DNA of 9,522 nucleotides from Candidatus Baldrarchaeum yapensis (GTDB lineage Archaea > Asgardarchaeota > Baldrarchaeia > Baldrarchaeales > Baldrarchaeaceae), in assembly GCA_016840465.1 (NCBI GenBank), contig JAEOSH010000070.1, positions 1 to 9,522 of the forward strand. The letters are read 5' to 3'. Made by a program: the position numbers and the translations under genes. The notes beneath the pieces were generated by a model. That model ran no database searches, was not told where the DNA came from, and saw only the letters and a list, made by a program, of their open reading frames with translations. This document shows, piece by piece, positions 1 through 9,288 of this stretch (positions are counted from its first letter, which is position 1; each line of letters begins with the position of its first letter).

Positions 1-617
1 CTCTCCTCCAATAGCGATAGTATTTTTTCGTAATCTTCTCTTCCCGCTATACATCCTTGGTTTCTCGCATGGATGTGTGCCCAATCTATCACAGGGACTG
101 TTCGTGGGATCTCCTCGCACATGTTGATGACTTCTTCTAAAGTTCCGAGTTGTGACGTTTTACCGGTGGTCTCCGGACCGAGTAGTACGTCTGTTATACC
201 TTCGCGCTCGGCATTTTCGAGGACTTCTTTAAGGGCATCTATGCACATTTTAAGCGCCTCTTCTGGATTCTTTTCACCGTAATACCCTGGGTGGAACACC
301 ACCAGACGCGCGCCCATCCAGTGTGCCGCCTTTAGCGCATCGAACAACCTTTTCTTTGACTGTTCATATGTTGTCTTTTTATCAGAAGATAAATTTATGT
401 AGTACGGAGCATGTAGTGACAGAAGGACGTCGCATTTTTTCGCATTTTCGCCTAATATTCTTGCTTTCTCTTCTTTTATCCTTACCCCTCTCACCGCCTG
501 GTATTCGTAAGCGTCTAGGCCCTTTTCTATGAGGAAGAAGGGAACTTCCTCAGTTGGTCCTTTATATCCAATGGGGTTTCCGGCGGTGCCGAACCTGGGC
601 CTAGAAGTCATACTCAT
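1..617 (-). CDS. nfo: Endonuclease IV (AP endonuclease family 2, TIM barrel); C-terminal part runs off the window, so it is absent from the ORF track
   Basis: Manual translation from ATG 617 (or ATG 611, better spaced from GAGGGT at 618-623) is open to base 3. It reads MSMTSRPRFGTAG...GLDAYEYQAVRGV...LSLHAPYYINLSS...AAHWMGARLVVFHPGYYG...LGPETTGKTSQLGTLEEV...VIDWAHIHAR. HAPYYINL, VFHPG, ETTGK and DWAH match the metal-binding motifs of archaeal endonuclease IV. Confidence 0.93.
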   Translation of the reverse strand, partial: MSMTSRPRFGTAGNPIGYKGPTEEVPFFLIEKGLDAYEYQAVRGVRIKEEKARILGENAKKCDVLLSLHAPYYINLSSDKKTTYEQSKKRLFDALKAAHWMGARLVVFHPGYYGEKNPEEALKMCIDALKEVLENAEREGITDVLLGPETTGKTSQLGTLEEVINMCEEIPRTVPVIDWAHIHARNQGCIAGREDYEKILSLLEE

Positions 618-621
618 ACCC

Positions 622-1449
622 TCAGATGAAAAGGGGTATTACTTGGTAGAGCACGTGTGAACATATGCATGGAAGGATTCTCCTATTTCTTAACTGATAT
701 AGGAGGCCGAGTAGCAGGTTTTCTATGAACATTGGTAGGAAAAGCCATAAAGCGTATGTGTACGAGAAGATTATAAACATAAGTGTTACGAGGAGGGAGG
801 AGAGCAGTAGCCCTTTTCTTTTCCCGCTGCTGTTTTCAAGTCCCTGCTGAATGAGTACACGTGCGAAGAACTCCTCTGAAATTGGTGTTATTAGGCCGGT
901 GCTTACCAAGAAAAGCGCGTAATCTTCAGGTTTTGCCGTCTTAAAAACTGTTTCCACGAATTCATAGAGAGGATACGGTGGTAATAATGTATCCTCCACC
1001 GTATAAATGACCCAAACGACCGCGATTAGAATCCCCGCCCAAACGATGCCGATGAGGATATCCGAAAGTAATGAGCGAGAGTCCTCATAGGATACTCCGA
1101 GCTCCTCCTTTTTGTTAATGTACCATGCTACTGGGATCAGCAGAACCGCCTTCGTTGCGGAGATGACAGAAAGAATTGCCAGGTCGGGTAGATCGAGTAC
1201 AAGCGGTCCATATAGTACTATTAGAATGTATGCGCATGAGTTTATGGCGACGAGTAGGAGTAAAAAGCCCAATATTAATGCTTTCAGGGAAGTTTTCCAG
1301 GTTAGGATTTTCGGTTCGACGGGAGTTGGGGGTTTAAACTGAGGGGGAGGAGTTTCTAGTGGCGTGTTGCAGATCGGGCAATACTTTATGGACGGGGCTC
1401 TGATTTCAGCGCCGCATTTTGGGCATATTCTTATTTGATCCGATGTCAC
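622..1449 (-). CDS. Zn-ribbon-fused CPBP family (CAAX protease-like / Abi) multi-pass membrane protein, catalytic motifs partly degenerate
   Basis: GTG start. N-terminal CPKC-x12-CPIC Zn ribbon, Pro-rich linker (ETPPPQFKPPTPVEPK), about 7-8 hydrophobic segments. Motif 1 PISEEFFAR (EExxxR), then GLLLSSLL, LGLLYQ and CSHVLYQ occupy CPBP motif positions. Stop lies 4 nt upstream of the nfo ATG at 617, suggesting co-transcription. Confidence 0.8.
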   Translation of the reverse strand: MTSDQIRICPKCGAEIRAPSIKYCPICNTPLETPPPQFKPPTPVEPKILTWKTSLKALILGFLLLLVAINSCAYILIVLYGPLVLDLPDLAILSVISATKAVLLIPVAWYINKKEELGVSYEDSRSLLSDILIGIVWAGILIAVVWVIYTVEDTLLPPYPLYEFVETVFKTAKPEDYALFLVSTGLITPISEEFFARVLIQQGLENSSGKRKGLLLSSLLVTLMFIIFSYTYALWLFLPMFIENLLLGLLYQLRNRRILPCICSHVLYQVIPLFI

Positions 1450-1562: not shown

Positions 1563-3056
1563 ATGCTATTGAGGGTCACCAATGGCTTCGATGACTTATT
1601 ATGTGCAAAGACGAATTTAGAGATTTTCATTTGCTTAATGTGTGGAAGTATTCTCCGTAGCGGAGATGTTGATGTCAAGAAGAAAATGTACTTCTTATGC
1701 AAGAATTGTAATTCGAAATACGAGCGTTTGGGCGATCTTCCCGCGTGTAAGAGGTGTGGCTCCTCCCGTCTCCTTCTTCTCACAAGATATATAAAAACCT
1801 GCAAGTTTTGTGGATCGGAAAAAATACTTCCGTTATCTCAACTTAAGGCCCTCGTGTTGAAGCGAGCACGGCAGGTAATTGCGGTTGCTAGAGAGGTATT
1901 GAACTCGGTATCATCTCTTGTGCGAAGGTTTGAGAAAATAAAAGGAATTGCGTTGGAGGCGCGGTCTGCTGGTTTTCATCACTTCCCGATAATAGAATTG
2001 AGTTTAAAGAAATTTTCGGATAGATTACGCGATATAAAGTTGCTAATATCTCAGAAACTCCATAGGATACTTAACGACATGCTTGCGTGTGTGGAGTTTT
2101 TGGGGGGGAGTAATGGGGAGAAAATGGTGCTCGCGATGGAAAAGTCGAAAAGTCTAATCGATGAGATCGAGAATATCAAGAACGAGATAAGTAATGTTAA
2201 GGATAAACTGATGGGGGAACTTTTCGAGATTTCGATACCAATATACACGCTATACTATAACAGTCGTCTTTTTAGCAGGTATGGAAGGTTTATCCGTTTG
2301 CAAAACCATGAAAAACCGATATTTGTCCTTGATGGGATTCTAACCACGCGCTCTGACGGCAGAAAGAGTGTCTGTATGGTCATACTGACTAACATGAGGA
2401 TAATTGCACTTCAGATAGATAAGTACTATAAGGTGCCGAGGATATTTTGCGAGTATGAACTTATGTCGATCAAGGGAATGAGAGAGATGGGGGTGCTGAG
2501 AAGGATCCTTCTCCTGAAGTTCAGTAACGGGAGTGTGAAATTTCAGTCATCACCCGAAATTTTGAAATTGTTGCGTGAGTATATGGAAATTGCGCTCAAT
2601 TACGAAAATTATTCGATTAAAGAACCGTATAAGGAAGTATTTGACAAGATCACGGTATCTATCGAAGATTTGGACAAGATGATTGTCGAATTTGAAGAGA
2701 AGTTGAGAAATGCGCAGAAAGTGGGCACTAAGGAATCGAAAACAAAACACGATCGAATGGATACTAGCCGCGCAAAAACGAACCTAGTAAGAGAAGTTAA
2801 TGGGCGGAAGTCCTATCTGGAAATGCGGAAGAAGGAGTTAATATCACTACTGGAAGAACTGGAGCGAAAGTTCAAAGAGGGAATAATTTCTGTGGAGGAC
2901 TATTTCAGATACTATCGTACATGGATGGGGGAACTCTACTCCATAAATGCGCAACTTGGCGAATCGGACAAAACGTCGGAAGATAGTATGCATGGAAACT
3001 TAAATATTGTTTCTGAGAACAAGAAAGTGGGTAGTAATGAAGCAGACGACAAGTGA
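1563..3056 (+). CDS. Multidomain protein: four CxxC Zn-ribbon half-sites, long helical region, PH/GRAM-like domain, coiled coil, C-terminal steadiness-box (ESCRT-I headpiece-like) hairpin
   Basis: Open frame 1515-3056; start uncertain (TTG 1515, ATG 1563, see findings). CLMC, CKNC, CKRC, CKFC at 1602-1810. EKPIF...VILTNMRIIAL...YELMSIKGM...ILLLKFSNGSVKF at ~2307-2600 resembles PH/GRAM-like folds. LEELERKFKEGIISVEDYFRYY at 2808-2957 matches the steadiness box of the Vps23-like gene in this window. Confidence 0.75.
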   Translation: MLLRVTNGFDDLLCAKTNLEIFICLMCGSILRSGDVDVKKKMYFLCKNCNSKYERLGDLPACKRCGSSRLLLLTRYIKTCKFCGSEKILPLSQLKALVLKRARQVIAVAREVLNSVSSLVRRFEKIKGIALEARSAGFHHFPIIELSLKKFSDRLRDIKLLISQKLHRILNDMLACVEFLGGSNGEKMVLAMEKSKSLIDEIENIKNEISNVKDKLMGELFEISIPIYTLYYNSRLFSRYGRFIRLQNHEKPIFVLDGILTTRSDGRKSVCMVILTNMRIIALQIDKYYKVPRIFCEYELMSIKGMREMGVLRRILLLKFSNGSVKFQSSPEILKLLREYMEIALNYENYSIKEPYKEVFDKITVSIEDLDKMIVEFEEKLRNAQKVGTKESKTKHDRMDTSRAKTNLVREVNGRKSYLEMRKKELISLLEELERKFKEGIISVEDYFRYYRTWMGELYSINAQLGESDKTSEDSMHGNLNIVSENKKVGSNEADDK

Positions 3057-3297
3057 GATAAAGGAGATTTTTAACTCAATAGAGCAGTCACTTATCGAGG
3101 GCTGGAATTTTCTCTTAACAGTAGGAACATATGCGGCTCTTTTTACAATGGGAATAGGCGCAATACTCTGGTTTTCCGGATTTGATACTGTAAAGGGTAA
3201 GAGAATGTTGCTCGGCGGGGTAATTTTATGCGCGGTAGTTCGCATCCTTGCAACAATTTCGCCAAGAGAACTGATCCAGGCAGTTTTAGGAAAGTAG
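3037..3297 (+). CDS. Small two-TM membrane protein (~86 aa), VirB2/TrbC-pilin-like layout, function unknown
   Basis: ATG 3037 follows GTGGGT and overlaps the upstream stop by 20 nt. An amphipathic N-terminal helix is followed by TM1 (FLLTVGTYAALFTMGIGAILWFSG), a short basic loop (FDTVKGKRM) and TM2 (LLGGVILCAVVRILA). Confidence 0.72.
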   Translation: MKQTTSEIKEIFNSIEQSLIEGWNFLLTVGTYAALFTMGIGAILWFSGFDTVKGKRMLLGGVILCAVVRILATISPRELIQAVLGK

Positions 3298-3310
3298 CAG
3301 AATACGAATA

Positions 3311-3934
3311 CTAAGGCACATGTATTTGTATAACAGACTTCTTCTTAATCCATCTAGCCTTACCCCTCTTGACAAGTATCTCGAACAACGTTAATACTTC
3401 GTCAAGCGGCATCTTCCTTAGTTCCTCGGGGCCCTCGGAGATAATAGTAAGTGGCGTCATCTCCAGCATGCCGTTCCTGATAGCATAATCGTATAACTCG
3501 TCAGCAAACTCCTCTAGGCTCTTCCAGAAAATTCTGATAGAAGTCTCACCGCGCCAGCGCGCGACACCGCTCTCCACCAAATACGCGAATATTTCCTTCA
3601 GATCCTCGCCACCTAACTTCGAAAACGGATACACCTTGGAGATCTTAGATATCGACAGCACATGCTCAAAGTGCGCCGCTGCCCACTTTACTAATAGATC
3701 TCCCCAGCTTTTGAGCCACGATTTGAGGTACATCTCTTGCTTTGGCCTAATGTACATCCACGGATACTCAACCCACTCTGGTAGTGCAAACTCGGTGCCT
3801 CTCTCCTCATGGATCCTTTCCGAAACTTTAACTCTTTGCACTTCGGCAACTTTAATATCAAGTTTACTCTCTTCATCTATCTCTTCTGTTTCTTCCTTTT
3901 TCTTCCCGCGAACCTTTTCTCTCTCGATATTCAT
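3311..3934 (-). CDS. vps25: ESCRT-II subunit Vps25-like (tandem winged helix) with a charged N-terminal extension
   Basis: LPEWVEYPWMYIRP...KSWGDLLVKW parallels the eukaryotic Vps25 N-terminus (WPWQYxFPPFFTLQP...AWCSLVL). WKSLEEFADELYDY...LFEILVKRGKARWI parallels its second WH domain. Preferred start is ATG 3934, 7 nt after GAGGT that overlaps the vps4 stop; the ORF track extends to 3985. Confidence 0.88.
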   Translation of the reverse strand: MNIEREKVRGKKKEETEEIDEESKLDIKVAEVQRVKVSERIHEERGTEFALPEWVEYPWMYIRPKQEMYLKSWLKSWGDLLVKWAAAHFEHVLSISKISKVYPFSKLGGEDLKEIFAYLVESGVARWRGETSIRIFWKSLEEFADELYDYAIRNGMLEMTPLTIISEGPEELRKMPLDEVLTLFEILVKRGKARWIKKKSVIQIHVP

Positions 3935-3944
3935 CCCCCAAACC

Positions 3945-5090
3945 TCATGCAGAATATGCTCTCGCCCAATCTTCATATTTGGCAATTTCTTCCTTCGATA
4001 TCGATGGCTTTATTCTCTTAAGTGCCTCTAGAAAATCATCCATCGTAATGGGACGAATTTTCTCTGTCTTCAAAAGAAGTCCCTGCTCGTCGAGTTCCCT
4101 AATAGGGATCATCGCAGCCTCCCTGCATACTAAGGCAATATCCGCACCACTATACCCATCGGTTAATTCTGCAAGTTTGTCAAAATCAACTGAAGGATCG
4201 AGATCTAGACCACGTGTGTGAATCTTAAATATCTGAACCCTGGCATACTTATCGGGAGGCGGCACGTATATCCTACGCTCAAACCTCCTTCTCATTGCGG
4301 GATCTATCTCCCAAGGCCTGTTCGTTGCACCTATGACCACTATTCTTTCATCGGACTCCGACTTCAACCCATCCATCTCCAATAAAAACTGGGTCTTCAA
4401 CCTACGCTCCCCACCTATCTCGTCCTCCCTCCTCACGCTCGCAATAGAGTCTACCTCATCGATGAATATTATTGCCGGTTGCCTCTCCCTCGCTAAGGTG
4501 AACAACGTCTTAACAAGTTTTTCAGACTCCCCTAACCACTTAGACACGAGAGTTGCAGCATCCACGTTGAAAAATGTAGCATTGCACTCGGCGGCTACAG
4601 CCTTTGCCAGTAATGTCTTTCCACAACCGGGTGGGCCAAAAAGTAGTATTCCCTTCCACGGCCTCCTCGCGCCCTTGAATAGATCGGGACGTAGCATCGG
4701 AATTATTATCGCCTCCCTCAGAATGCCCTTCGCCTCTTCGAGATCTGCAATGTCATTAAAGGAAATCAACGGGCGCTCAGTTACTATTGCGGATTCTATG
4801 ATCTCAGAAAGCTGTTTCAAATCTTCTGGCAGTTCACTTGCCTTCTTTTCGGGTACTGGCATCCTTCTGGATACGTACCTCCTGAGTTCCTTGCAACGCT
4901 CTATATACTCTTGCGCGCGCTGATAATAGAGCGCCCTCAACTTGCGATTTTCTGTCAACTTTGCAAGTTGAAGTAACGTTTCCGCGGCCTTGAGGTAATA
5001 CTTGATCGACGCCTCATAATCTCCTTTCCGGTCGAGTTTTATTGCCATCTTCGCAAAATAAGACGCATAGTTTAGTAACTGGGCGCCCAT
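3945..5090 (-). CDS. vps4: Vps4 AAA+ ATPase with N-terminal MIT domain (ESCRT-III disassembly)
   Basis: MIT three-helix pattern (AIKLDRKGDYEASIKYY...QEYIERCKEL), Walker A GPPGCGKT, pore loop SKWLGESEK, Walker B IIFIDEVD, sensor 1 GATNRPW, Arg finger AMRRRFERR, C-terminal helix SISKEEIAKYEDW. Start placed at ATG 5090 because the track start (5150) lies inside the TATA box. Confidence 0.96.
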   Translation of the reverse strand: MGAQLLNYASYFAKMAIKLDRKGDYEASIKYYLKAAETLLQLAKLTENRKLRALYYQRAQEYIERCKELRRYVSRRMPVPEKKASELPEDLKQLSEIIESAIVTERPLISFNDIADLEEAKGILREAIIIPMLRPDLFKGARRPWKGILLFGPPGCGKTLLAKAVAAECNATFFNVDAATLVSKWLGESEKLVKTLFTLARERQPAIIFIDEVDSIASVRREDEIGGERRLKTQFLLEMDGLKSESDERIVVIGATNRPWEIDPAMRRRFERRIYVPPPDKYARVQIFKIHTRGLDLDPSVDFDKLAELTDGYSGADIALVCREAAMIPIRELDEQGLLLKTEKIRPITMDDFLEALKRIKPSISKEEIAKYEDWARAYSA

Positions 5091-5142
5091 ATCTCTTCTC
5101 TCCGAGAAAATTTGCAATATACCCGTGTTTAATTCCGCAATA

Positions 5143-5163
5143 GTAAACATATAAAGATTTTAC
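5143..5163. promoter_or_regulatory. Archaeal BRE-TATA element in the divergent vps4 / ESCRT-III intergenic region
   Basis: The - strand reads GTAAAATC-TTTATATG (purine-rich BRE-like stretch then TTTATA). The + strand reads GTAAAC-ATATAAAG at 5149-5156. It lies ~40 nt from GTG 5195 and ~60 nt from ATG 5090. Confidence 0.6.
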
Positions 5164-5194: not shown

Positions 5195-5818
5195 GTGGTG
5201 CCCCTCTCAGATGCCATGAGGAAGTTCATAAGATGGCTTAAAGGCGTACCTAGTACTAGGAACCTATCGACACAATTGCACATTTTGTCAAAGAAACTCG
5301 AATTTCAAAGAAGAAAATTCGAGAGTGAGGCATACAAGTGCAGAGAAAAGGCCAAAAAGTACCGTATGGAGGGGGATTACGAAGCTGCAAAAACCTACGC
5401 AGAATACTACCTCAGGTACAAAAAATGGGCTCTCGGACTGGATATGTACCGACTACGCATGGATATGATCCTCGCAAAACTGCAACAGAGCCAGGCATTG
5501 GCAGATCTCGCCCAGATAATGCAAGATCTCAAGTACATACTGATGGGAGTAAAGGACTTGGTCAGTGCAACTGGCATCGCCGAAACGATTAGCGACGTTG
5601 AGAGAATAATGGGAGAGATAGATGTCGCGGCGGAAGTGGCAGGGAATAGCATAGAGAGAATCAGCGTGGATACAAAGGTGTCCCCCGATGAGGTGAATAA
5701 AGTACTTGCTGAAATAGACCAGGAGTTGGGTATAGAGACCGGAATGGCTCTCCCAGAGCCCGGAAAGAAAATAGAAGAATTAGAAAAGGAGATAAAGAAA
5801 CTTAAGGAAGAATTTTAA
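5195..5818 (+). CDS. ESCRT-III subunit, Vps2/Vps24/Vps46 class
   Basis: GTG start 5 nt after GGAGG (5185-5189). Basic helical hairpin (KKLEFQRRKFESEAYKCREKAKKYRMEGDYEAAKTYA...YLRYKK), acidic C-terminal half, VNKVLAEIDQELGIE...LP, and a terminal MIM1-like helix EELEKEIKKLK. Confidence 0.88.
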   Translation: MVPLSDAMRKFIRWLKGVPSTRNLSTQLHILSKKLEFQRRKFESEAYKCREKAKKYRMEGDYEAAKTYAEYYLRYKKWALGLDMYRLRMDMILAKLQQSQALADLAQIMQDLKYILMGVKDLVSATGIAETISDVERIMGEIDVAAEVAGNSIERISVDTKVSPDEVNKVLAEIDQELGIETGMALPEPGKKIEELEKEIKKLKEEF

Positions 5819-5831
5819 GGAGTTGATGTAA

Positions 5832-6470
5832 ATGTCGTTCCTTAAGAGATTAAAGGGAGCCCTTACGGGAGGATCAAAAAAGAACATTGACCGCACGATC
5901 GCCGAACTAATGTCCGTTATCAACGTTTTGCAACTCCGAACCAAAGAACTGGAAAGACGAGCAATGGCGAGCAGAGAAAAGGCAAAGGAGTTCATAAGGG
6001 CAGGAAATAAGGTGCTTGCTCGTCATCACCTAAAGCGTTATGTGCGCTACTCAAAATATCTGGAACGGTACTATAAGTTTGCCGCAAACTTAGAGGATAC
6101 GATCATGGAGATAAAAACAGCCCAAGATGTTGTGCAACTCGAAAGAGCACTAGAAAAGGCATCTAACATCCTAGAAAAGACGAAAACATTTGTATCTCGG
6201 GAAAAGGCATTTGAGACCATGGGTAGGGTTCAAGGACTCTTTGAAGAAATAGAAACTGCCTCCGAAATCCTCAGTGGAGACATAGAAATACCAGGAGAGG
6301 AAGAGGAGGTTGAAAAGGAGTACGAAAAATTGCTAACCGAGATCACGCTCGAGGCAGAAGCTGAACTCCCACGGGTGGCAACCGCGGAAAAAGAAGTTGC
6401 CGTAGAAGATGAACTAAAAAAGGAAGTCGAGAAACTAAAGAAGGAGGAGGAAGAGAAAGAGAAGGAATGA
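5832..6470 (+). CDS. ESCRT-III subunit, Vps20/Vps32(Snf7)/Vps60 class
   Basis: ATG after AAGGAG. Amphipathic N-terminus MSFLKRLKG, TIAEL...LERR...AKEFIRAGNKVLARHHLKR...LEDTIMEIKTAQ (Snf7 pattern), acidic tail with EEEEVEKEYEKL, LPRV and a terminal helix DELKKEVEKLKK. Confidence 0.9.
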   Translation: MSFLKRLKGALTGGSKKNIDRTIAELMSVINVLQLRTKELERRAMASREKAKEFIRAGNKVLARHHLKRYVRYSKYLERYYKFAANLEDTIMEIKTAQDVVQLERALEKASNILEKTKTFVSREKAFETMGRVQGLFEEIETASEILSGDIEIPGEEEEVEKEYEKLLTEITLEAEAELPRVATAEKEVAVEDELKKEVEKLKKEEEEKEKE

Positions 6471-6484
6471 AAGGGGGATGACAA

Positions 6485-7255
6485 TTGTATTCGGGTATAG
6501 ACTTCGATCAGATTCTAGCACGCGAAGCCCAACTTATGATAAACAGGGCACCCGGATTCGAACCAGTACATGGAGATCTTAGAAGATGGAGAGGAAAAGT
6601 GAAAACTGGGAGAAACCAATGGGTGGAAGTCGAGATAATCGTCCCAGACGGATATCCCCATGTGCCACCGGAAGTTAAGGTATTAACTCCTATCAAGCAT
6701 CCCTACGTCGATAGTCAGGGAAAACTTCATCTTCCAATTCTTGAGTCATGGCGTCCTCATTACCACTTGCACCACGTCGTCAACACAATAAAGGGCCTCT
6801 TTGTGAGGTACCCACCCGAGGAGGTCACGCCACCTAAACCTCCCCTCCACAAAGAACCATCTAAGGATATTGCAACTCTACAAAAGAAGATACAAATACT
6901 GGAAGAGCAAATAAAGGCGCTACAAAGGGAACTGCATGAAAAAGATGTTGAAATCGTACGTCTAAAAAATATGATACACTACAACATTCCTGATAGGACA
7001 ATGGCAACATCATCAAGAGATATACTTGATGAAGCCCTGCCAGAAGACCCGGAGGAAAGGTTAAGAATAGAATTGGAGTGCGAACTGCAAGCAATAGAGG
7101 ATATGTTGCATATCCTCGAAGAAAAATTCGAAGCGGGCGAAATACCCCCAGAGGACTACCATAAACTCTACACAAACTACCTGAAGCGAATGTATAAGGT
7201 CAAAAAACTTCTCGAAGGTATGAAAAAGGGTGAAGGTAGTGAAAAGAGCAGATAA
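6485..7255 (+). CDS. vps23: ESCRT-I Vps23/TSG101-like: UEV (Cys-less E2 fold), Pro-rich linker, coiled coil, steadiness box
   Basis: TTG start after GGGGGATGA. E2-fold motifs WRGKV, VPDGYPHVPPEVKVLTPIKHPYVDSQGKLHLPILESW, with His at the catalytic Cys position and HPY instead of HPN. PPEEVTPPKPP linker, heptad stretch IATLQKKIQILEEQIKALQREL, and steadiness box AIEDMLHILEEKFEAGEIPPEDY. Confidence 0.88.
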   Translation: MYSGIDFDQILAREAQLMINRAPGFEPVHGDLRRWRGKVKTGRNQWVEVEIIVPDGYPHVPPEVKVLTPIKHPYVDSQGKLHLPILESWRPHYHLHHVVNTIKGLFVRYPPEEVTPPKPPLHKEPSKDIATLQKKIQILEEQIKALQRELHEKDVEIVRLKNMIHYNIPDRTMATSSRDILDEALPEDPEERLRIELECELQAIEDMLHILEEKFEAGEIPPEDYHKLYTNYLKRMYKVKKLLEGMKKGEGSEKSR

Positions 7256-7847
7256 GACGTTAGAACTGAAAGCTGAACTTTTTGCATGTATTGCCACATT
7301 AGACAACCTCATGCGAAACTTCCAAGACGGAAAGATAGACCCCGCAACCTATAGAAGGCAGTTCAAATCGCTACTCCACGACATATTCAAGTATAAGCAG
7401 ATGCTTGAAGAAATGAACATAAACGTCGAAGACTTTATACGTGAGGAAAGACTGGACGAGAAATATCCTCTTGCAATGAGGAAATTCGCTAAGGAAGGAG
7501 AAACGGAAGCACCAGTGCTACAAACTACAACAACATCAGCAAAACTCGCAGTGAAGGCCTCCGATATAGTCGCCAACCTTATAACAATAATTGATTGTAC
7601 AAAACTCCACGATCTCGTCACAATTAAAATGATAGCACCACTTCTCGAGGAAACGATAACTCTACTTGTAAACTTCCCAGGTCTGCCTCCAAATTACTGG
7701 GTTGTCGTAGATATGAGAAACTGGCTAAATAAATTACTATCAATGGATCCGGAGGCAAAATTGGATGCTAAAACTTCTAAAGAACTGGAATTTCAGGCGG
7801 TGAGATGGTTAAACGACTTTAGGCTCCGGCTACGTGAAATGCAATAA
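7230..7847 (+). CDS. vps28: ESCRT-I subunit Vps28 (full length: N-terminal headpiece hairpin and C-terminal four-helix bundle)
   Basis: AELFACIATLDNLMRNFQDGKIDPATY...VEDFIREERLDEKYPLAM parallels eukaryotic Vps28 (AELFAVVKTMQALEKAY...IDEFCRKFRLDCPLAM). CTD LITIID...GLPPNY...NWLNKLLSM...LD...LEF. Overlaps vps23 by 26 nt; alternative start GTG 7239. Confidence 0.92.
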   Translation: MKVVKRADKTLELKAELFACIATLDNLMRNFQDGKIDPATYRRQFKSLLHDIFKYKQMLEEMNINVEDFIREERLDEKYPLAMRKFAKEGETEAPVLQTTTTSAKLAVKASDIVANLITIIDCTKLHDLVTIKMIAPLLEETITLLVNFPGLPPNYWVVVDMRNWLNKLLSMDPEAKLDAKTSKELEFQAVRWLNDFRLRLREMQ

Positions 7848-7868: not shown

Positions 7869-8165
7869 ATGAGTAGAGCAACTGGCATAATAGAACTCAG
7901 AGAGCGTCTATTAAAGTTAATAGATATGGTGGAACTAAGATTAGATGCTGAGTATATATTGGAGGAATTAGATGTGATAAGATATCTTATGAAGGCATAT
8001 TTGGGTCCTAATCATCAGGTGACAAAGGAAGTAGAGGAATGGTATAATACTCTCATGCAGAAATATCGCAATAATATGGGGGAGAGGATATCGGACGATG
8101 AAAGAAAAATTCTCTCTCTTAAGGCAAGCTCTTGGTATAATATCGTAAAATCGATCTTATTTTAG
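7869..8165 (+). CDS. Stand-alone Vps28 C-terminal-domain-like four-helix protein (98 aa)
   Basis: ATG after GAGGT, operonic between vps28 and vps22/36. Aligns by eye end to end with the adjacent Vps28 CTD (LID..L, G-PN..V, W.N.L, L...A..W.N). Confidence 0.7.
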   Translation: MSRATGIIELRERLLKLIDMVELRLDAEYILEELDVIRYLMKAYLGPNHQVTKEVEEWYNTLMQKYRNNMGERISDDERKILSLKASSWYNIVKSILF

Positions 8166-8177
8166 GGGGATGAATTT

Positions 8178-8918
8178 TTGGGGCTTCATGAAATTGAGAA
8201 GAAATTGAAGATGAACGCAGCTTTTAAGCAGAAAAGATTAGAACTCATGCTCACAGAGTTGGAAATGCTGATGCAGGGAATGAGGGACCTCTCCCAAAAA
8301 CTTGAAGAGTTCGAAGAAAAATACGGAGACATAATATCTCTTCATCCGGAATATAGGAAAAAGATAGAGGATCTAAAAAGAGAACTGGGAATATCGCCTG
8401 TTGTAGAGAAAGTGGAAAAGCCGAGCTTTTGGGAGAGATTGCGCGGGAAAGGACCATTTTATAATACACTTGCGATGAAAATTCTGAGAATCGCACTTCC
8501 TCTTGCAAAGAAAACAGGCGGGATACTCACACTGGCTGAACTTCTAACGACATTAACAAAGAAATTCCCAACAATGCAAATAAAAACAACAGATGTATTA
8601 AAGGCCCTAAACGTGTTAAAAGAAGAAGGACTGATCGCAGACGTGAGAAAACTCAAAAGTGGCGTCGTATTAATTGAGGTGCTCCCGGTAGAATTATCAA
8701 ACGATCAGCACGAGGTGTTATCGCTCGCGTCCGATAAGGGATGGGTAACCCTTGATGAAGTGCTGTTGAAAACGGGTTGGACTCAAGAACGTGCACGGAG
8801 GGTGCTTAAAGAACTTGAAAACTCCGGTATTGCTGTCTTTGACCCCAATTATGCAAAGGGAGGAAGATGGTTCTTCCCGGGCCTTAAGAGTGCATCTAAG
8901 GCTAGTTCTTCCCCTTAA
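8178..8918 (+). CDS. vps22: ESCRT-II Vps22/Vps36 (EAP30 domain) subunit
   Basis: TTG start after GGGGGATGA. GLHEIEKK N-terminus, FEEKYGDIISLHPEYR...LGISP...FW...GPFYNTLAMKI...GGILTLAEL, DVLKALNVL, VLPVELSNDQHEVL, GWTQERARRVL and WFFPGL all track Vps22/SNF8. No GLUE domain. Confidence 0.92.
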   Translation: MGLHEIEKKLKMNAAFKQKRLELMLTELEMLMQGMRDLSQKLEEFEEKYGDIISLHPEYRKKIEDLKRELGISPVVEKVEKPSFWERLRGKGPFYNTLAMKILRIALPLAKKTGGILTLAELLTTLTKKFPTMQIKTTDVLKALNVLKEEGLIADVRKLKSGVVLIEVLPVELSNDQHEVLSLASDKGWVTLDEVLLKTGWTQERARRVLKELENSGIAVFDPNYAKGGRWFFPGLKSASKASSSP

Positions 8919-9288
8919 ACATTTCTTCTAAACTTTTTTCCTCCTTCTCACCTCGTCGCTTGATAGTAATTTTCGGCTCATAACCCTCTATCTTTCTCTC
9001 TAAAATCTTGACATCCACCTGGGACAACTTCGTTACCAAGGATCCCATTCGCAGCGCATCCATAATTATATTTTCTATGCGCCTCGCGACATTGGGCTTA
9101 TTCCTTTTAAGTTCAGAGAAATACTCGTACGCATCCGGTAACATCACCACCCTCATAATTTCATCCATCTTCCTCTCCATCTCCTTTCTTCTTTCCTCGA
9201 TCTTCCTACGCTCCTCAACCTTCTTCATAAGTTGAATCATCTTCCTCCGCATCAATCTCTGAAGCTCTAGATCCTCACTCTCGCCCAC
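8902..9288 (-). CDS. PDCD5/TFAR19-like double-stranded DNA-binding family protein
   Basis: GTG after GAGGAG. EDLELQRLMRRKMIQL...IMRVVMLPDAYEYFSELKRNKPNVARRIENIIM...GSL...LSQVDVKIL follows the PDCD5 pattern (DxELExIRxxRL...ILRxILTPEARERL...KPExAxxVExxL). Confidence 0.78.
   Translation of the reverse strand: MGESEDLELQRLMRRKMIQLMKKVEERRKIEERRKEMERKMDEIMRVVMLPDAYEYFSELKRNKPNVARRIENIIMDALRMGSLVTKLSQVDVKILERKIEGYEPKITIKRRGEKEEKSLEEMFKGKN

Follow-up and report, generated by a model that had tools for sequence, protein, structure and literature searches.

The protein encoded at positions 1563 to 3056 of the 9,522-nucleotide stretch of Candidatus Baldrarchaeum yapensis DNA analysed here (the window) belongs, by its sequence, to the Asgard-specific family Znr_CC_PH_SB (asCOG cog.011556), and we favour, at a probability of roughly 60%, the reading that it is a modular archaeal ESCRT adaptor which docks on the ESCRT-I headpiece via Vps28. 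Asgard ESCRT-I serves as a model for the origin of the eukaryotic sorting machinery, and Znr_CC_PH_SB is a published candidate both for the place of Vps37 and for membrane binding of the Vps36-GLUE type. The copy described here is a somewhat reduced further member of that family, not a new architecture, and adds little in kind; it offers a compact test case, in which all ESCRT layers and exactly three hairpin proteins share one locus. It also yields a concrete prediction from the complex model, i.e., that residues 437–464 of the target bind residues 11–48 of Vps28, which bears on the third-subunit versus alternative-Vps23 models.

The window spans a complete ESCRT locus of the Asgard type, with every ESCRT layer present; its genes are the following:

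3–617, minus strand: nfo-like gene
622–1449, minus strand: CPBP protease with a zinc ribbon
1563–3056, plus strand: Znr_CC_PH_SB-family gene, the target (P0001), from the ORF, its homologues and the AlphaFold model
3007–3297, plus strand: small ORF with two transmembrane segments (2-TM ORF)
3311–3985, minus strand: Vps25
3945–5150, minus strand: Vps4
5195–5818, plus strand: Snf7-family ESCRT-III, first gene
5832–6470, plus strand: Snf7-family ESCRT-III, second gene
6485–7255, plus strand: UEV-Vps23 (Pfam Vps23_core, 3.2e-6; UEV and UQ_con domains)
7230–7847, plus strand: Vps28 (Pfam VPS28, 2.3e-16)
7869–8165, plus strand: 98-residue ORF
8178–8918, plus strand: EAP30/Vps22 gene (EAP30 spans residues 1–222 of 246)
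8902–9288, minus strand: PDCD5-like gene

The target ORF runs from an ATG at 1563 to a stop codon at 3054–3056 and encodes 497 residues. The N-termini of its homologues coincide with this ATG in the family alignment, and a TATA-like AT-rich box at about 1504–1514 would place the alternative start, TTG 1515, upstream of the transcript.

An AlphaFold model of the target, obtained with a 36-sequence alignment (pLDDT 87.8, pTM 0.70), resolves the following modules, all on the plus strand:

residues about 20–90: zinc knuckles and strands, as seen in the AlphaFold model
1632–1709: zinc ribbon 1, C24xxC27 with C46xxC49, the cysteines being near-invariant in the family, with modelled strands at residues 22–24 and 36–46
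1746–1811: zinc ribbon 2, C62xxC65 with C80xxC83, with near-invariant C62, C65, C80, P81 and C83
1833–2291: antiparallel three-helix coiled-coil stalk, residues 91–243
2316–2597: unsplit PH-superfamily domain, residues 252–345
2664–2741: single helix, residues 368–393, from the modelled secondary structure, followed by a disordered linker at about residues 394–407 (pLDDT below 50)
2781–2996: steadiness-box helical hairpin, residues 407–478, with helices at 407–438 and 444–478

The three helices of the stalk (91–135, 143–179 and 185–243) are all modelled at high pLDDT, and the PH domain consists of seven strands and a C-terminal helix. The four CxxC motifs claimed in the initial annotation were found at C24, C46, C62 and C80, and its PH-like domain was likewise seen in the model. 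The coiled coil that it placed before the hairpin is real, but its position was misjudged: the three-helix bundle is, as modelled, an intramolecular coiled coil N-terminal to the PH domain, and just the single helix and the disordered linker adjoin the hairpin. Scanned alone, P0001 reached threshold for neither Pfam nor NCBIfam, the PH and zinc regions included, so that family-level scans were needed for domain assignment; among 36 relatives, Pfam matches were obtained to bPH_3 (15), zf-B_box (8) and Vps23_core (6).

These relatives emerged from an exhaustive search, a word-indexed search having retrieved the target alone. The exhaustive search recovered 41 representative homologues, many of them full length at about 500 residues, to which the target is 18–36% identical. 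Of 61 genomes from the same phylum, 47 contain matches, with full-length proteins of ~500 residues in about a dozen families, and the zinc module, the PH domain and the hairpin consensus are common to the family alignment. The membership of the target is established indirectly, since it is linked to the published protein through a homologue, P0012: P0001 matches P0012 with an E value of 4.2e-12 over residues 16–371, and P0012 has three signature strings in common with ThorAB25_08990, the Thorarchaeota protein that was used as 'SB' in the two-hybrid work of Hatano et al. 2022 (Supplementary Data 1; PMC9192718).

The family was named Znr_CC_PH_SB (also Znr_PH_CC_SB) by Makarova et al. 2024 in mBio (PMC10936438), where it was described as Asgard-specific and probably ancestral and was proposed to be a component of ESCRT-I whose PH domain associates with the membrane. 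A RING-CC-PH-SB protein had been drawn in the scheme of Hatano et al. 2022 (PMC9192718), and the distinct architecture claimed in the initial annotation was thus already in print under both names. The target has the same order of zinc module (reduced), coiled coil, PH domain and steadiness box as the published family, is homologous to it and lies in an ESCRT locus; the two have in common the phylum-wide spread, the siting by ESCRT-III, Vps4 and Vps25, and a proposed ESCRT-I-linked membrane role. We note two differences. First, the published zinc module has three sites (PMC10936438), whereas four of the six CxxC pairs remain in the target and in P0003, its closest relative at 36% identity, which leaves two zinc sites. 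Second, the target gene adjoins vps25 rather than lying tail to tail with a Vps20-class ESCRT-III gene.

Six CxxC pairs are present in 29 aligned relatives, and pairs 1 and 3 of the family are jointly missing from the target and from P0003. By its sequence, therefore, the target has a reduced zinc module of two Cys4 sites, versus three in most relatives. Because pairs 1 and 3 were lost at once, they may form a single metal site, interleaved with that of pairs 2 and 4, an arrangement which would fit the B-box matches of eight of the 36 relatives. The zinc families matched by the target and its relatives are DZR_2, zf-B_box, DZR and Zn_Ribbon_TF only, DZR_2 giving a weak match to residues 24–83 of the target (E 0.001). 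No RanBP2-type/NZF finger was among the Pfam matches listed for the window proteins or the 36 relatives. The fingers were initially likened to NZF fingers, a label which does not hold, as they are zinc-ribbon or B-box-like.

In yeast Vps36, the PH domain is split by NZF fingers and joined to EAP30 winged helices. The target, like the Vps36/EAP45 GLUE protein, combines a PH fold with zinc fingers in one protein. However, its PH domain is contiguous, its zinc module lies ~160 residues upstream, and it ends in a hairpin rather than in EAP30 winged helices. Among solved structures, yeast Vps36 (2cay) ranks first both in a PDB profile search with the family PH domain (E 0.04) and in a Foldseek search with the modelled domain (E 2.1e-5, TM 0.73, 21% identity), with other PH/GRAM domains equalling or beating Vps36 by VIA-align Z. 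A search of the Swiss-Prot part of the AlphaFold DB returned generic PH domains only, with one Vps36 at rank 3, and in searches with the whole model the PH domain and, owing to the pairing of a helical bundle with a PH domain, DH-PH proteins predominated. At the sequence level, the P0001 PH domain has no Pfam match up to E 1, and the GLUE family (PF11605) is weakly matched by 10 of 35 relatives (best E 0.037), bPH_3 and GRAM fitting better. A specific GLUE assignment was rejected on the generic PH and DH-PH proteins that the fold searches return, and the 'GLUE' label of the initial annotation gives way to an unsplit PH domain of the bPH/GRAM/GLUE branch, with yeast Vps36 leading the solved structures by no more than a narrow margin. 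By analogy, this domain may bind a membrane or a ligand. The accompanying remark that the Vps22/36 protein encoded here has no GLUE domain proved correct, the window's Vps22 being EAP30 only. An EAP30 fusion in other genomes was considered as a Vps36 orthologue and set aside, since its winged helices share 42% identity with Vps22 of the window and lie closer to human SNF8 than to VPS36.

The C-terminal hairpin ties the target to ESCRT-I. Two segments of the neighbouring proteins are relevant here:

7043–7213, plus strand: steadiness box of UEV-Vps23, residues 187–243 (Pfam Vps23_core, 3.2e-6), which aligns with the target hairpin
7260–7373, plus strand: Vps28 N-terminal hairpin, residues 11–48, the predicted docking surface, which receives all confident model contacts

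By BLASTP, the C-terminus of the target aligns without gaps with the window's Vps23 (15 of 47 residues identical, E 5e-6); the pairwise BLASTP comparison of the hairpin with the window's Vps28 alone is not significant. A profile built from 31 family hairpin sequences matches the Vps23 alignment at 98.3% (E 1.3e-14) and the Vps28 alignment at 94.4% (E 8.6e-8) in hhalign. The single hairpin pattern that the initial annotation had read in the three proteins is thereby borne out, and the target hairpin is, on these alignments, homologous to the steadiness boxes of Vps23 and Vps28, far beyond chance. In a profile search of the whole genome (2.27 Mb, 96% complete), exactly three significant steadiness-box hairpins were found, all inside the window, i.e., those of the target (3.8e-20), Vps23 (5.9e-9) and Vps28 (2.0e-8), with the next match at 0.011, in agreement with the earlier claim of a third steadiness-box protein tied to ESCRT.

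The relationship of this hairpin to those of the eukaryotic subunits was addressed by a PDB profile search, in which yeast Vps23 from the solved ESCRT-I core ranked first (1.1e-6, 31.2 bits), followed by human VPS37B (6vme_C; 4.8e-4, 22.7 bits) and TSG101 (0.017). In a control search, the hairpin profile of the window's own Vps23 preferred TSG101 (8e-4) over VPS37B (0.12). Orthology to either Vps37 or Vps23 was not assigned from the PDB ranking, the control with the Vps23 profile showing that such a ranking cannot settle it. By sequence the nearest hairpins are those of yeast Vps23 and of the window's Vps23, and the target shares with Vps23/TSG101 a predicted Vps28-binding face. It differs from them in having no UEV or UQ_con match, the UEV-Vps23 of the locus being encoded by a separate gene, and in its stalk, an intramolecular three-helix bundle ahead of a PH domain.

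For the gene neighbourhood of the family, flanks of at most ~9 kb around each of 37 orthologues were searched with the window's proteins; the loci represent about 12 families and hence are not independent. At least one ESCRT gene was found in 30 of the 37 loci, and an ESCRT-III gene lies within about 9 kb in 28 of them, often 40–250 bp away and convergent (tail to tail). The seven ESCRT-free loci include short contigs and three weak matches to the N-terminus only. The tie to ESCRT, which the initial annotation had made dependent on such linkage, thus survives. Across genomes, ESCRT-III, Vps4 and Vps25 are more frequent companions of the gene than are Vps23 and Vps28. Linkage to Vps28 was dropped as a measure, as the two genes lie on the same contig and no more than 15 kb apart in only a few genomes, and a distance of 373 kb separates them in one complete genome. 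In relatives of the same order, the gene follows the second ESCRT-III gene; here it lies on the other side and converges on vps25/vps4.

A three-chain complex model was built from Vps23 residues 180–256, Vps28 residues 1–110 and the target hairpin, each entered as an alignment. The model scored 0.73 versus 0.35 for the best control, a mark reached in calibration by 58 of 80 solved complexes versus 2 of 110 mismatched pairs, counts which hold only roughly here, as our own alignments and three chains were used. At least 97% of contacts are common to the three model runs, and the pLDDT of the partner is 81 or higher. The confident contacts all pair residues 437–464 of the target, in the conserved second helix, with residues 11–48 of Vps28; none between the target and Vps23 is listed in the three-chain model. 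The target thus probably docks on Vps28, as a predicted contact. Resemblance to the solved ESCRT-I headpieces 2f66, 2p22 and 6vme, instead of true binding, may account for the passing score. With an unrelated protein in place of Vps28, the model still scored 0.35 and had 39 confident contacts, so that the hairpin may be generally sticky to steadiness-box hairpins and may have some affinity for Vps23. In the solved yeast core, Vps23 is the subunit on which Vps37 packs, and Vps23 itself packs on Vps28. Because the modelled contacts fall on Vps28, they look more of the Vps23 type than of the Vps37 type. Hatano et al. 2022 (PMC9192718) report two-hybrid results that suggest possible binding of the free-standing SB protein to Vps28.

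The mechanism that we propose would begin with the hairpin plugging into the ESCRT-I headpiece by its conserved second helix, packed on the Vps28 N-terminal hairpin. The PH domain, perhaps together with the zinc module, would then anchor the complex at a membrane, cargo or partner, and the signal would be relayed from Vps28 to Vps22/Vps25 and then to ESCRT-III/Vps4. Within this reading, the target may be a third blade next to UEV-Vps23 or may substitute for it; the former has its appeal, given exactly three hairpins in the genome. The initial annotation had the protein completing an ESCRT-I headpiece while supplying lipid or cargo sensing, and this proposal stands in part: the docking model, the synteny and the zinc and PH modules that the target carries speak for it, and what falls away is the Vps37-like identity. 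The hairpin is nearer to Vps23 than to VPS37B, 6 of 36 relatives match Vps23_core, Mod_r is not matched, and the modelled contacts are with Vps28. 'Vps37-like', 'NZF' and 'GLUE' are analogies only.

The alternative that survives best, though we consider it unlikely, is that the target is a true Vps37 equivalent, i.e., the third blade of a 1:1:1 headpiece that packs on Vps23, with the helix upstream of the hairpin joining the Vps23 stalk. In its favour, exactly three hairpins occur in the genome, all in a single locus; the target would be the third hairpin protein and carries a hairpin homologous to that of Vps37 (6vme_C). In addition, the family profile ranks VPS37B above TSG101, the reverse of the order given by the window's Vps23 profile, and the hairpin scored 0.35 against Vps23 with Vps28 replaced. 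The related genomes that have no family member include small ones or those with a fused Vps23-Vps28, and in lineages of this fused or small-genome kind a second Vps23 copy fills the third place (Hatano 2022, PMC9192718). However, the three-chain model contacts Vps28, with no confident contact reported with Vps23, and the best PDB match is yeast Vps23. At the Pfam level, a scan of P0001 up to E 0.1 gave no Mod_r match, Mod_r (PF07200) is absent from the 25 families listed for the 36 relatives, and no Mod_r/Vps37 match was found among the ten window proteins scanned, upholding the earlier statement that no Vps37 is recognisable in the window. The architecture also differs, as the target bears zinc, stalk and PH modules that Vps37 does not have, and, in contrast to the stalk helix of Vps37, its long coiled coil is intramolecular and precedes the PH domain. 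Finally, Vps37 is regarded as a eukaryotic innovation (Hatano 2022, PMC9192718).

A weaker rival, to which we assign a smaller chance still, is that the target is a CdvA-like recruiter acting directly on ESCRT-III and independently of ESCRT-I, its PH domain and coiled coil forming a membrane-bound scaffold that nucleates or positions the Vps20/32/60-class neighbour. Both proteins would then be adaptors upstream of ESCRT-III. Consistent with this, the most conserved neighbour is ESCRT-III rather than Vps23 or Vps28, one relative matches Pfam CdvA, published work has linked the steadiness-box and CdvA hairpins, and two-hybrid data hint at Vps25-bypassing routes to ESCRT-III (Hatano 2022, PMC9192718). 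The hairpin also superposes on the CdvA filament structure at 0.7 Å over 71 residues; however, such superposition of helical hairpins comes easily, and the PDB profile search finds Vps23, VPS37B and TSG101 but not CdvA at E values up to 10. No PRC barrel and no ESCRT-III-binding peptide were identified in the target, for which partners other than those of CdvA would be expected, and the neighbouring genes are mostly convergent and therefore not co-transcribed.

More speculative, and in our view rather improbable, is a broader scenario in which the zinc-stalk-PH head is a portable membrane or cargo sensor mounted on different ESCRT layers. Here it would form a UEV-free second ESCRT-I through a Vps23-type, Vps28-binding hairpin, and in one lineage it is mounted on ESCRT-II through Vps22-type winged helices; the eukaryotic Vps36 GLUE-plus-finger module, and perhaps Vps37, would then have descended from it. 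That the target is unrelated to ESCRT, i.e., a generic zinc/PH protein with a chance hairpin likeness and accidental siting, is in keeping with the sub-threshold Pfam and NCBIfam scans of P0001 alone but is effectively refuted by the strong profile homology, the synteny over about 12 families and the Vps23_core matches of the family.

The 2-TM ORF at 3007–3297 was rejected as a conserved partner, with zero tblastn matches near any orthologue. The closest named relatives of the neighbouring proteins are found in Freyarchaeota/Jordarchaeaceae metagenome-assembled genomes.

In one Asgard family, the zinc-stalk-PH module of the target protein P0001 is joined to a different C-terminal part, namely EAP30/Vps22-type winged helices in place of the steadiness box. 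Two such fusion proteins, each from a related genome, are encoded at the following positions.

Locus L037, 9025-10842, genome G044: fusion protein P0097
Locus L046, 9001-10806, genome G052: fusion protein P0096

The module is the same as that of the target, as BLASTP aligned the fusions to P0001 residues 22-373 with an E-value of 3e-14, and the winged-helix part was recognized by Pfam EAP30 in both proteins (3.8e-8 and 1.8e-11, both over the cut-off). The domain order of these fusions resembles that of Vps36, and the PH domain of P0096 matched the Vps36 GLUE domain at 1.8e-4. A canonical Vps22 is encoded approximately 8 kb from the fusion gene. The winged helices of the fusion share 42% identity with the window's Vps22, and human SNF8 is a closer match to them than human VPS36, so the EAP30 fusion is probably an independent one.

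The target family is present in the genomes of family f7 (loci L017-L019, L021 and L038). A full Vps28 was detected by Pfam in none of the six f7 genomes (0/6); a short Vps28-like N-terminal hairpin is instead encoded directly upstream of the Vps22 winged helices or as a fusion with them. The published 'Vps22' ThorAB25_09030 (Hatano et al. 2022, PMC9192718) exhibits the same hairpin/winged-helix arrangement.

Within the window, one ORF lies between vps28 and vps22.

7869-8165, + strand: 98-aa ORF

Its product resembles the four-helix domain at the C-terminus of Vps28, with a BLASTP match to Vps28 residues 125-195 at E 0.002, and an orthologue occupies the equivalent position in L020. Separately encoded Vps28 C-terminal domains have been mentioned previously (Makarova 2024, PMC10936438).

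Three further features concern the surroundings of the target gene itself.

3-617, − strand: nfo-like endonuclease gene
1504-1514: AT-rich TATA-like box, ~50 nt upstream of ATG 1563
3007-3297, + strand: small ORF predicted to encode two hydrophobic helices, overlapping the target gene at its 3′ end

The small ORF has no match in Pfam or NCBIfam, and a tblastn search beside all 37 target orthologues returned 0 matches. By these searches it is not a conserved partner of the target, and it may be no gene at all. In several related genomes (L014, L015, L017, L019 and L022), an nfo-like gene is found within a few kb of the target orthologue, a locally conserved synteny for which no functional connection is evident. 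The TATA-like box overlaps an alternative TTG start at 1515, from which the database entry for the target (513 aa) begins; this version is probably 16 residues too long.
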